The notes under the pieces: generated by a model
Databases searched by the model: none
What the model was told of the DNA's origin: nothing
What the model saw: the letters and a program-made list of their open reading frames with translations, nothing else
From: Tannockella kyphosi
GTDB lineage: Bacteria; Bacillota_I; Bacilli_A; Erysipelotrichales; Coprobacillaceae
Length of the DNA stretch: 32,000 bases
NCBI RefSeq assembly: GCF_021054785.1
Contig: NZ_CP088239.1
Coordinates: 1,140,001-1,172,000 of the forward strand
Direction of reading: 5' to 3'
In this document: in pieces, positions 16,018 through 17,288 of the stretch
Layout: the number at the start of each line of letters is the position of its first letter
Position numbering within the stretch: the stretch's first letter is position 1
Position numbers and translations under genes: made by a program

Positions 16018-16044
16018 GAAAAAACGGAATTAAAATTCCGTTTT
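16018..16044 (-). terminator. Rho-independent (palindromic, potentially bidirectional) terminator after the ubiquitin-domain gene
   Basis: On the minus strand the sequence reads AACGGAAT-TTTA-ATTCCGTT followed by TTTTTCG. It begins about 12 nt after the stop codon. Confidence 0.7.
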
Positions 16045-16055
16045 CAATAATAAGG

Positions 16056-17288
16056 TTATACTCTTTGTCTTCTTTTTATATCAAAACATACATAAATAAC
16101 ACTAATAGTACCTAATGTCATATAGATTAATAAAGAACTATGATCACCAGTATCAACAGTACCCTCTACATCTACTTCATCACTAGCTATAAGTTCTTCC
16201 ACCATAAAAGTAGTGGATGCCTCACCAGTAGTAGAAACAATAGCTAACGTATGTTCACCTAATGATAGATTAAGAATATACTCATTACTAAGAGTAACTA
16301 TAGTACTCCCTTGTTCTAATGATAGATATTGTTCATCTACGATTTGTCCATCTACTAATGTATGTAAATAACTACTAAAAGAAGCATCACTAGTAAATGA
16401 AATCGTATCACTCTTCATTACAGTTTGATTATTTCCTAAAATAATAGAATGATTACCTTCTTCATTTACTACCACAGAAATAGTAACTAAATCTTCAAAT
16501 ATACTACTTGTATATTCTAGAACACCATCTTGATTATCATCGATACCTATTATACTAGCATCAATGACAACTTCTTCTATTTGATCACTTGCATAAAAGA
16601 TACTTCCATCTATTTCTCCTTGTCCAGAAGCAATCGTAAAAACAATATTCTCATAATCAAAATAATCATTTAAATCGATACTTTCCCCTGCACTTACCAT
16701 TAATTCTTGATATTCTAATAAAGAAGAATCGATTGGTAAAATAGAAAAATCTGTTAACACCTCACAACTAGATATTACCGTTCCTTGATAATACTCATCA
16801 GCAACACTTAGAAGTGTATAATCCCCAACATAGTTTGGTACACCTTGAACATAGCAACTATCATCTTGCCCTTGTAACTTATAAGAATATTCTATTTTAA
16901 TAGTTACATCATCACCTATATAATTTTCTTCTTCATAAAAGACAGTAGGTTCTACTGTTTGACCATAATACGTATCCTCTTGTATTACTTCTATATCCAT
17001 TTTACACAAGATATGCAAAGTAGAATCTTTTTGAATACTATAATCTTGTAAAGTATTTCCATCTTCTAATAATTTTCCAGCAAAATATAAAAGCTGATTT
17101 TCTGGTAATATACCTTCTTTATCTTCTATTTTTGCTTTCACATCTTCAATACGATCTGTTGCTTCTACTTCTAATGTAACATGTTTTCCACTGAGTGTTT
17201 TTACAAATATTTGCATTGCATAAGAATCAATGCTAGTACTTACCATCATCATGGCAAATACACTTATTATAATTATTATTTTTTTCAT
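16056..17288 (-). CDS. Secreted, C-terminally anchored surface protein with an N-terminal eukaryotic-type ubiquitin domain
   Basis: - Signal peptide: [24 protein letters not shown].
- Ubiquitin domain: [72 protein letters not shown] follows directly. It aligns without gaps to ubiquitin, with 50 of the first 68 residues identical by hand count.
- Body: about 280 aa of acidic, beta-rich, adhesin-like sequence.
- C-terminus: TVDTGD, a 20-aa hydrophobic stretch, then KRRQRV.
- Start: the ORF-track start at 17306 is a TTG. I prefer the ATG at 17288 (MKK...). Confidence 0.85.

Follow-up and report, generated by a model that had tools for sequence, protein, structure and literature searches.

How does a domain that closely resembles eukaryotic ubiquitin come to stand at the front of an exported bacterial protein, and what could it do there? 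The question is raised by a gene in the window, that is, the stretch of 32,000 nucleotides from Tannockella kyphosi that was analyzed here; the organism is Gram-positive, lives in the gut and belongs to the order Erysipelotrichales. A first-pass annotation had pointed out that the domain keeps all seven ubiquitin lysines and has lost the conjugation tail and the arginines that contact E1, and had read this pattern as that of a decoy, an acceptor or a binding mimic rather than of a functional modifier.

The gene encodes a precursor in which a signal peptide is followed by the ubiquitin domain, a beta-rich stalk and a sorting signal (Table 1), and the mature protein is predicted to comprise 386 residues. 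The domain matches PF00240 with 83.3 bits (cut-off 25.4, E = 1e-23) and aligns without gaps to human ubiquitin 1-72. AF2 predicts the beta-beta-alpha-beta-beta secondary structure of the beta-grasp fold with pLDDT values of 64-85. Over 76 residues the domain is 66% identical to human ubiquitin and 76% identical to a polyubiquitin unit of Tritrichomonas foetus. Translation and alignment bear out the residues that the first-pass annotation listed as kept (K6, K11, K27, K29, K33, K48, K63, L8, D58, Y59 and H68) and as lost (R42L, I44Y, V70L, R72K and R74D), and reveal L71C, L73M, G75I and G76E as further changes in the tail. Residues 71-76 read CKMDIE, and the chain runs on for 310 more residues. 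The range of 16998-17216 given in that annotation corresponds to Ub 1-73.

Table 1. Coordinates of the features of the ubiquitin-capped protein gene in the window (Ub, ubiquitin numbering)
Feature	Positions	Strand	Basis
Whole gene, 410-aa precursor; stop codon 16056-16058	16056..17288	-	ORF list and translation
Sec signal peptide, residues 1-24 (MKK, hydrophobic run, SYA)	17217..17288	-	Read from sequence
Ubiquitin domain, residues 25-100 (Ub 1-76), parabasalid type	16989..17216	-	PF00240, alignment, AF2
Strain-variable mosaic patch, codons 70-140 (Ub 46-76 and next 40 residues)	16869..17081	-	Window compared with L102
Beta-rich acidic stalk, residues 101-376	16161..16988	-	Sequence and AF2
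Membrane-proximal beta-sandwich-like stalk domain, residues ~279-364	16197..16454	-	AF2 and conservation
Sortase-type C-terminal sorting signal (T-V-D-T-G-D, hydrophobic span, KRRQRV tail)	16059..16160	-	Sequence and recurrence in genome
Intrinsic terminator of the gene	16020..16045	-	11-bp stem, then T run, 11 nt past stop codon

With the Gly-Gly absent, R42, R72 and R74 gone and the chain continuing into the stalk, the domain would be neither activated nor conjugated as a donor, and it would not be released by cleavage at a Gly-Gly, as had been proposed. Judged by these residues and by its predicted place outside the cell, the domain is dead as a modifier. The same losses recur among 70 unique bacterial relatives, of which just one retains the Gly-Gly and only four jointly retain R42, I44, V70 and R72.

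The predicted signal-peptidase cut directly precedes Met1 of ubiquitin (junction SYA/MQIF, with the cut at the slash). Signal peptides were called from sequence features, namely a hydrophobic run and the residues at -3 and -1. A region of this kind lies immediately upstream of ubiquitin in 67 of the 70 unique related domains, and the -3/-1 rule is satisfied in 65 of these 67, with position -1 occupied by A in 61 and by G in four, and position -3 by A in 49 and by V in ten. At the other end of the protein the sorting motif is of the x-T-G-D type and differs from canonical LPXTG. The C-terminus of at least nine ORFs in the genome is made up of x-T-G-D or x-T-S-D, a hydrophobic span and a basic tail, with VDTGD present in four of them, and the genome holds four sortase matches to PF04203 (best E = 9.9e-24). 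From these features we infer covalent anchoring to the cell wall, and localization outside the cell is predicted. The protein shares with LPXTG adhesins a signal peptide, a distal N-terminal module, a beta-rich stalk and the succession of motif, hydrophobic span and basic tail; it differs from them in its motif (x-V-D-T-G-D), in a tip that consists of eukaryotic ubiquitin and in a stalk without any domain at the Pfam threshold.

A Pfam scan of three stalk segments at E <= 10 matched no family. Weak MBG_3 and Big_3 matches were found in a homologue (G022) at places equivalent to the stalk of the window protein, and 'MBG-like' or 'Big-like' stalk domains are impressions gained solely from these matches. 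Residues ~263-405 are similar to parts of numerous large surface proteins encoded by related genomes; when residues 100-410 served as query in a word-based search of 5.8 billion proteins, only the two same-locus homologues were found. The AF2 model of the mature protein, built on a 4-sequence alignment, has a mean pLDDT of 46.5 and a pTM of 0.27. Confidence is low for residues 96-294, and the usable parts are the ubiquitin domain and one membrane-proximal domain. The latter, predicted as all beta, is the sole part of the stalk for which AF2 confidence is moderate (pLDDT 55-76) and also the best conserved part in comparison with P0119 (57% identity, dN/dS 0.21); it recurs in further surface proteins of relatives. 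The position of ubiquitin at the 'tip of a stalk' follows from the topology, the stalk model being poor, and should be taken as provisional.

The source of the module is very probably a parabasalid polyubiquitin gene, that of a trichomonad protist living in the gut. The parabasalid signature is complete, with 8/8 residues present (H12, T20, R22, D25, N54, Q57, S60 and D64), and the best eukaryotic match is T. foetus polyubiquitin with 78% identity over the aligned stretch. Identity reaches 83% over residues 1-70, and residues 50-68 are identical. The T. foetus protein is a cytosolic head-to-tail polyprotein that is cleaved to free ubiquitin ending in LRLRGG, whereas in the bacterium the domain occurs singly, is exported, cannot be cleaved at its C-terminus and has lost R42, I44, Q49, V70, R72 and R74. 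An autotransporter of gut alphaproteobacteria (L026/L106) contains a unit that is 76/76 identical to T. foetus ubiquitin, LRLRGG included. Recent transfer was considered and rejected, as no sampled genome carries a ubiquitin module that exceeds 75% identity in DNA to the one described here.

At least 532 bacterial or archaeal genome loci encode a relative of the ubiquitin query, and in nearly all of the best 80 of these ubiquitin stands directly after the signal peptide. Isolates of Frisingicoccus caecimuris, Clostridium tertium and Thomasclavelia spiroformis are among the members. Counted by genome, relatives occur in 11 of 401 from the same order, in 5-7 of 400 in a family sample of Lachnospiraceae and in 16 of 283 from a gut alphaproteobacterial order. 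The caps sit on unrelated bodies, including sortase-anchored stalks, autotransporters and proteins with SLH-type ends, they are present in free-living as well as in gut bacteria, and eukaryotic ubiquitin has been captured repeatedly from different donors. In the literature no paper describing ubiquitin-capped bacterial surface proteins was found, so that the set is apparently both large and undescribed.

Until now, the only bacterial copies of eukaryotic ubiquitin to have been studied were BfUbb and BoUbb of Bacteroides. BfUbb, released by a Gram-negative cell, is a free protein of 76 residues whose C-terminal cysteine or disulfide is needed for activity; it enters related strains by SusCD-type import and acts there as an antibacterial toxin on a periplasmic PPIase (PMC3352274, PMC11467351). 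Its identity to human ubiquitin is 63%, and a different source was proposed by its authors (PMC3352274, PMC5705921, PMC11467351). The best 60 PDB matches to the window's domain are all eukaryotic ubiquitin. Compared by published descriptions, BfUbb and BoUbb (from B. fragilis and B. ovatus) resemble the present domain in being derived from a eukaryote, in their occurrence in gut bacteria, in a Sec signal peptide directly before ubiquitin and in the loss of the Gly-Gly, and also in belonging to strain- or species-specific, horizontally acquired genes. A toxin of the BfUbb kind, secreted to kill bacterial competitors, would fit the position straight after the signal peptide, the loss of the Gly-Gly and the life in the gut (PMC3352274, PMC11467351), as well as a cysteine at position 71. 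For the window protein such a toxin is nevertheless scarcely credible. Its ubiquitin, of parabasalid type and from a Gram-positive host, is a domain on a stalk with a sortase-type wall anchor rather than a free protein of 76 residues, and it has neither a C-terminal cysteine or disulfide nor any conserved cysteine; C71, the sole cysteine in the domain, is found in one of 70 relatives and is replaced by S in the nearest allele. Moreover, the SusCD-type importer of Bacteroides, by which BfUbb enters, has no counterpart in Gram-positive targets. The set described here is much larger than the Bacteroides cases, with protist ubiquitin capping surface proteins of many gut bacteria, and its new element is the pattern of selection.

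Against the syntenic orthologue, Ub 1-70 has a dN/dS of 0.11, compared with 0.12 for the neighbouring enzyme gene. Stalk segments give 0.44, 1.05 and 0.21 against the same-locus orthologue, the middle of the stalk thus lying at about 1. The proposal that conservation exceeds simple drift is supported by these values, since Ub 1-70 is as constrained as the neighbouring enzyme and the stalk is looser (0.2-1.0). In 22 independent pairs whose downstream bodies are homologous, dN/dS amounts to 0.057 in the core, 0.055 on the other surface, 0.26 on the Ile44 face, 0.43 in loop 37-40 and 0.49 in the tail; the corresponding values in the 14 closest pairs are 0.138, 0.146, 0.50, 0.85 and 0.64. Several of the pairs show saturation of dS. 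Which residues count as buried core was taken from textbook knowledge of 1UBQ. Most comparison sequences were found by patterns covering Ub 1-8 and 57-64, and the results hold when these segments are excluded and also in a small sample of 23 HMM-ascertained domains. The pattern is face-based: constraint is equally strong in the core and on the surface opposite the Ile44 patch (0.06-0.15), whereas little of it is left on the Ile44 face, in loop 37-40, at the arginines and in the tail (0.26-0.85). The variable positions (8/9, 37-40, 42, 44, 48/49, 68 and 70-76) form one contiguous face on which substitutions are chemically unsystematic, and the Ile44 patch shows less conservation than any other part of the domain. 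The description of a domain with most of its surface kept and a remodelled Ile44 patch, first given for the window sequence, is true across the family.

The lysines do not stand out within this pattern, and the view that their retention is selective had to be given up. With parabasalid ubiquitin taken as the ancestor (18 differences), all seven would be kept by chance with a probability of 0.14, or of 0.25 without the tail. In the orthologous allele of another strain (P0002) the changes K48E and N54K occur. All seven lysines are intact in 45 of the 70 unique relatives, compared with 56% expected from independent sites, and lysine retention is no better than that of random positions (P = 0.12-0.30) or of surface sites off the Ile44 face (P = 0.27). 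The lysine that varies most is K48 on the released face, with a retention of 0.81. Over the 22 independent pairs K63 and K27 show zero changes and the lysines a mean of 1.7, compared with 17 changes at R42 and 16 each at R72 and R74; losing the arginines and the tail is a systematic feature of the whole family. In the 14 closest pairs the dN/dS of the seven lysines is 0.145. The per-site conservation and dN/dS of relatives, suggested with the first-pass annotation as a check, show that the lysines behave like other conserved surface residues. They persist because they belong to the conserved face and not because they serve as acceptor sites, and the lysine pattern is a by-product that provides no evidence for an acceptor or decoy role.

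A decoy, acceptor or mimic for ubiquitin-binding domains that engages host ubiquitination via its lysines could draw on the full set of lysines here and in most relatives and on the invariance of K63 and K27. It is very improbable all the same, because lysines are no more conserved than other conserved surface residues, K48 is E in the nearest allele, and the patch that UBA and UIM domains bind is the very region that is least conserved. The location of the protein also speaks against such a role: exported and predicted to be tethered by sortase outside a Gram-positive cell, it has no evident route to the host cytosol and hence no evident access to E1, E2 and E3 or to cytosolic UBA and UIM modules.

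In yeast ubiquitin the pattern of mutational sensitivity is the inverse of the bacterial one, and the face opposite the Ile44 patch tolerates almost any substitution. Since ubiquitin must still fold in yeast, foldability alone does not account for what the bacteria conserve. This bears on the reading of the domain as a purely structural cap, in which a fast-folding, extremely stable and protease-resistant ubiquitin would shield the free N-terminus where proteases abound, as in the gut lumen or a phagosome, without being recognized. Such a cap would suit the occurrence on unrelated bodies and in free-living and gut bacteria alike, the exact coincidence of the varying residues with those whose sole use in eukaryotes is to bind partners, and the unsystematic chemistry of their substitutions. 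However, the 38 surface residues off the Ile44 face match the core in constraint (0.055 vs 0.057; 0.146 vs 0.138), although they belong to the face that is tolerant in yeast, and eukaryotic ubiquitin was captured time and again from different donors even though bacterial beta-grasp domains are plentiful. We therefore consider a structural cap unlikely, while giving it appreciable weight. The conserved face could also be held for extreme stability via surface salt bridges and not for recognition.

In eukaryotes, too, the face opposite the Ile44 patch is conserved without explanation. The bacteria drop the residues that eukaryotes need (R42, I44, K48 and the tail) and hold the face that yeast tolerates changing as tightly as the core, and they thus provide an independent natural experiment on the long-standing puzzle of why the 'tolerant' face of ubiquitin is conserved. 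The conserved face also offers a defined surface for seeking a partner on protist or host cells.

The opposite assignment, in which the Ile44 beta-sheet face and the tail would serve as the variable ligand surface of an adhesin tip and the rest as scaffold, has to be weighed against variation between strains. The DNA of the window and that of a second strain (L102) are 99-100% identical over 4.7 kb except inside the mosaic patch, where dS is 0.50 and dN/dS 0.74, compared with a dS of 0.012 in the rest of the gene. A second copy or template repeat of the patch was not found anywhere in the genome. This absence of a template copy and the dS of 0.5 led to the rejection of a diversity-generating retroelement as the source and point to an imported allele; on this comparison the patch is a recombined segment of a divergent allele. 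A repurposed binding face would agree with such an exchange between otherwise almost identical strains, with the contiguity of the variable positions and with the relaxed middle of the stalk. We regard it as improbable, given that dN/dS on this face ranges from 0.26 to 0.85 and never exceeds 1, that the high dS of the patch reflects import of an allele and not positive selection in place, and that no ligand is known. In addition, the variable positions lie around the point where the C-terminal tail leaves the domain and may simply adapt to the next fused domain.

In engineered ubiquitin the beta-sheet face is commonly randomized, and this face overlaps with the positions that vary naturally here. 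Engineered ubiquitin variants and Affilin (e.g. PDB 8pf0 and 8peq, which are among the PDB matches) likewise keep the fold and diversify a surface patch; they are laboratory constructs selected for a chosen target, whereas the variable face of the window's domain is known from sequence alone.

The anatomy of the protein, its origin and the pattern of selection are jointly held with very high confidence. As the best explanation overall we favour, with somewhat better than even confidence, an exported, wall-anchored protein that is capped by a captured, conjugation-dead ubiquitin and would display it to eukaryotic cells. Removal of the signal peptide would turn Met1 of ubiquitin into the first residue of the mature protein, and the domain would be placed on the cell exterior at the distal tip of ~280 beta-rich residues that are followed by the x-T-G-D sortase signal. 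There it would form a very stable ubiquitin look-alike that eukaryotic cells, be they protist grazers or the host, meet from outside, and it would serve the ubiquitination machinery neither as substrate nor as decoy. Display towards eukaryotes as the function of the capped protein is a tentative proposal, to which we assign a little less than an even chance. A 'binding mimic', as suggested in the first-pass annotation, might conceivably act via the opposite face.

The occurrence of ubiquitin caps in free-living bacteria argues against a mammal-specific role, and the persistence of parabasalid-specific residues without drift toward host residues argues against mimicry of host ubiquitin. Mimicry of mammalian ubiquitin was accordingly rejected as unlikely: the parabasalid positions are retained at 0.84-0.99 and have almost never changed to the mammalian residue. 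A more specific form of eukaryote-facing display would be a surface ubiquitin aimed at the donor lineage, with bacteria that are grazed or colonized by trichomonads showing the protist's own ubiquitin, its face opposite the Ile44 patch intact and its parabasalid-specific residues in place, on the tips of their fibres. We put this forward as a speculative idea with a low probability. If it were true, recognition of the display by the protist would lead to attachment or to altered uptake or digestion after phagocytosis, and free-living bacteria would do likewise with the ubiquitin of their grazers, which would amount to a general, convergent molecular mimicry between prey and predator.

ThiS/MoaD, Pup, SAMPs and YukD, most of which have the beta-grasp fold, represent ancient prokaryotic lineages. 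To our knowledge they show no significant sequence similarity to eukaryotic ubiquitin. YukD of type VIIb secretion is, like the window's domain, a non-conjugated ubiquitin-like protein in an envelope system of Firmicutes. The window's domain differs from these prokaryotic proteins in its origin by a comparatively recent eukaryote-to-bacterium transfer and in being 66-76% identical to ubiquitin.

The gene is present as a single copy in the genome, and same-locus homologues elsewhere in other strains or species comprise an allele with 91% identity and an orthologue with 51% identity. It is absent from the two other species of the genus, in each of which the DNA downstream of purB differs and a clean empty site is missing. 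In the 49-nt gap after purB no clear promoter was found. Shuffled sequence yields 0.1 terminator-like sites, compared with the one located 3' of the gene for the ubiquitin protein.

The open reading frame that carries the ubiquitin domain begins with 24 residues, followed directly by the 76 residues of the domain, and the chain runs on past it. The domain matches the Pfam ubiquitin family (PF00240) with 83.3 bits (cut-off 25.4), aligns without gaps to residues 1-72 of human ubiquitin and is 66% identical to the human protein over 76 residues. Translation and alignment bear out every residue call of the first-pass annotation. K6, K11, K27, K29, K33, K48, K63, L8, D58, Y59 and H68 are kept, whereas R42L, I44Y, V70L, R72K and R74D are substituted and the Gly-Gly is absent. 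The domain has lost all features needed for conjugation.

Coordinates of the ubiquitin gene, its parts and two pilus-like clusters
Feature	Position	Strand	Remarks
Open reading frame	window 16056-17288	-	410 codons; ORF list and translation
Ubiquitin domain	window 16989-17216	-	residues 25-100; PF00240 match at residues 27-97
K63 codon	window 17028-17030	-	
Recombined tip segment	window 16869-17081	-	213 bp; codons 70-140 (ubiquitin 46-76 and the next 40 residues)
Pilus-like cluster	G000:C1 366-373 kb		outside the window
Pilus-like cluster	G000:C1 2179-2181 kb		outside the window

The hydrophobic N-terminus closes with S-Y-A, a signal-peptidase-type site, and the predicted cleavage after this motif would leave Met1 of ubiquitin at the start of the mature protein. 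The C-terminus consists of TVDTGD, a 19-residue hydrophobic span and DIKRRQRV. In a scan of the genome (2.26 Mb, 30.7% G+C), at least nine ORFs ended in x-T-G-D or x-T-S-D plus a hydrophobic stretch and basic tail; VDTGD was common to four of these ORFs, and four sortase matches were found. Based on this motif class and the sortases, the protein is read as putatively wall-anchored by a sortase, with ubiquitin displayed at its distal tip. The two pilus-like clusters harbor LPxTG/IPQTG-type substrates adjoining sortase genes, which differ from the x-T-G-D class of the ubiquitin protein. The stalk between ubiquitin and anchor comprises about 280 acidic, beta-rich residues and gave no Pfam match at E <= 10; a relative in a different genus has weak MBG_3 and Big_3 hits at equivalent places. 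AlphaFold2, run with only four sequences, gave a poor model (mean pLDDT 46.5), in which credibility is limited to the ubiquitin domain (64-85) and a single membrane-proximal beta domain (55-76). A strong terminator lies 3' of the stop codon, and the 49 nt that follow purB contain no convincing promoter.

Among eukaryotic sequences, polyubiquitins of Tritrichomonas foetus and of termite-gut samples come closest (78% across the aligned part), and no other eukaryote exceeds 73%. The parabasalid unit departs from canonical ubiquitin at H12, T20, R22, D25, N54, Q57, S60 and D64, and the window domain contains all eight residues, the parabasalid signature. It differs from the parabasalid ancestor by 18 changes (T9S, I13V, P19A, Q31E, P37L, D39E, Q40N, R42L, I44Y, Q49L, L69I, V70L and six tail residues), and residues 50-68 are identical. 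It is unlikely that the domain mimics ubiquitin of the mammalian host, as retention of the eight residues specific to parabasalids is 0.84-0.99 and changes to the mammalian state are very rare. In free-living taxa a canonical-type ubiquitin occupies the same position behind a signal peptide, which indicates that ubiquitin was captured more than once. The passenger of a 408-aa autotransporter-like ORF of Proteobacteria bacterium CAG:495 (L026/L106) opens with a ubiquitin that agrees with the T. foetus unit at 76/76 residues, with LRLRGG intact and followed by DFDS; the capture appears to be very recent. Four gut alphaproteobacterial autotransporters (L028, L060, L130, L131) have five derived states (T9S, P37L, D39E, Q40N and R42L; motif LPENQLL) in common with the window domain, at a DNA identity of only 70%. 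These shared derived states reflect either an old exchange of modules between phyla or convergence.

The first-pass annotation had taken retained lysines and lost arginines as selective conservation, pointing to a decoy, acceptor or binding mimic. The contrast is real and family-wide, but it tracks the face on which each residue lies rather than residue type. Retention of all seven lysines has a chance probability of P = 0.14 for 18 changes in 76 positions, and of 0.25 for 12 changes in 70. The same-locus allele P0002 from another strain (about 91% identical) carries K48E and N54K, though its DNA is otherwise 99-100% identical to the window over 4.7 kb. Among 70 unique bacterial domains the lysines were retained no better than seven random positions (P = 0.12-0.30), and the outcome was unchanged in 23 domains found by profile instead of pattern. 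Ancestral residues were retained at 0.93 (K6), 0.91 (K11), 0.91 (K27), 0.94 (K29), 0.94 (K33), 0.81 (K48) and 1.00 (K63) in these 70 domains; the variable positions were R42 (0.33), Q49 (0.31), D39 (0.43), V70 (0.47), Q40 (0.49), P37 (0.53), I44 (0.64), R72 (0.24) and 73-76 (about 0.05). Over 22 independent pairs, lysines changed in 1.7 pairs on average, Asp/Glu in 2.3 and arginines in 14.0 (R22 7, R42 17, R72 16, R74 16), and lysines did not differ from the surface outside the Ile44 face (P = 0.27). The most variable lysine, K48, is the one on this face. An acceptor or decoy role is thus highly improbable. The exposed K63 is kept in 70/70 parabasalid-type domains, part of which were ascertained with a pattern containing K63, in 23/23 profile-ascertained ones and in several very divergent ones; it is the only lysine whose conservation cannot be ascribed to structure.

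Selection was assessed by Nei-Gojobori dN/dS in residue classes fixed beforehand. The core class comprises 20 buried residues as given in textbook descriptions of 1UBQ; L8, R42, I44, G47, K48, Q49, H68 and V70 make up the Ile44 face.

dN/dS of ubiquitin residue classes in bacterial pairs
Class	14 closest independent pairs	22 pairs with homologous downstream body
Core	0.138	0.057
Other surface	0.146	0.055
Ile44 face	0.50	0.26
Loop 37-40	0.85	0.43
Tail	0.64	0.49
Seven lysines	0.145	not calculable (synonymous sites saturated)

A low dN alongside a high dS might stem from the history of the donor. The set of 22 pairs addresses this point, because homologous downstream bodies mean that these genes diverged as bacterial fusions. 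Ubiquitin is under purifying selection in bacteria, split between two faces, as measured with a crude estimator on few pairs, several with saturated dS, from loci mostly ascertained by patterns at ubiquitin 1-8 and 57-64. This pattern is the inverse of ubiquitin's mutational sensitivity in yeast. That the domain acts through a re-purposed variable binding face is improbable. Between the window and its 51%-identical syntenic orthologue P0119, dN/dS is 0.11 for ubiquitin 1-70 and 0.12 for the neighbouring enzyme gene, compared with 0.44, 1.05 and 0.21 in stalk segments and 0.81 in the anchor region; ubiquitin is therefore the best-kept part of the protein. That it serves as a purely structural, protease-resistant cap is rather doubtful. 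Tentatively favored is a eukaryote-facing function, in which eukaryotic cells would encounter, from outside, a conjugation-dead ubiquitin look-alike exposed at the bacterial surface. The secreted ubiquitin homologues BfUbb and BoUbb of Bacteroides fragilis and B. ovatus likewise have a signal peptide, a lost Gly-Gly and a gut habitat. However, they are free 76-residue toxins with a C-terminal cysteine/disulfide and import by a SusCD-type transporter, and the window protein lacks both the free-standing form and the C-terminal cysteine. A BfUbb-like toxin is hence barely credible.

Pfam-profile searches found ubiquitin in 11/401 genomes from this bacterium's order; both other species of the genus lacked it, and it occurred in 0/398 other genomes sampled across the phylum. 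It was present in 5-7/400 genomes of the family of Frisingicoccus and in 16/283 of a gut alphaproteobacterial order. Pattern scanning with each prokaryotic species represented by one genome confirmed at least 532 loci, including those of the cultured isolates Frisingicoccus caecimuris DSM 28559, Clostridium tertium and Thomasclavelia spiroformis. Among the best 80, nearly all have a signal peptide ending right before MQIFVKTL and a replaced tail, and the bodies behind ubiquitin vary: Clostridia, Bacilli, Negativicutes and Eggerthellaceae have sortase-type ends, gut Alphaproteobacteria autotransporter-like ones and Bacteroidota other types. A signal-peptide-like region lies directly upstream in 67/70 unique parabasalid-type domains, with A (61) or G (4) at residue -1 and A (49) or V (10) at -3. 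Four clostridial proteins (L048, L054, L057, L063) have their parabasalid-type ubiquitin inside the chain, 115-270 residues after the N-terminus and away from the signal-peptidase site, and a 627-aa ORF (L016, G338:C6) contains two divergent domains, at the mature N-terminus and around residue 304. Five loci (L015, L017, L111, L114, L115) from Erysipelotrichales, a Bacteroidaceae MAG and a Lachnospiraceae-family sample form a second, more divergent signal-peptide-plus-ubiquitin lineage, with ubiquitin at about residue 50, a beta1-beta2 hairpin lengthened by two inserted residues (I-F-I-D-L-K-I-I-G-E...) and R54, A57, N60 and E64 of canonical type. It seems to stem from a separate capture or from an older one. 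Polyubiquitin or ubiquitin-ribosomal-protein fusions with intact LRLRGG and no signal peptide, on very short contigs of 'bacterial' assemblies (L087, 2.4 kb; L096, 0.7 kb) or on contigs of 9-24 kb in a Rickettsiales MAG and an archaeal MAG (L089, L101), are probably eukaryotic contamination. A full-text search of literature outside subscription journals found no paper on ubiquitin-capped Firmicutes surface proteins or a trichomonad origin; the present analysis adds the selection pattern by site and by face and the mosaic between strains.

The alleles P0002 and P0119 share the window's locus between purB and an SDH_alpha-family gene. The window allele and P0002 (locus L102), otherwise nearly identical, differ by a recombined segment at the protein's tip, with a 2-codon indel and 43 changed codons. 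Its dS is 0.50 and its dN/dS 0.74, against a dS of 0.012 elsewhere in the gene. The genome holds no template copy of the segment, which indicates an imported allele and rules out a diversity-generating retroelement as its source. The region downstream of the pur operon is a variable spot, with the ubiquitin gene present only in the window's species group. The DNA there differs in each of the genus's three species: the other two have nanE-like, CAP-domain and RmuC genes (G001, L143) and a symporter with an alpha-galactosidase (G002, L144).
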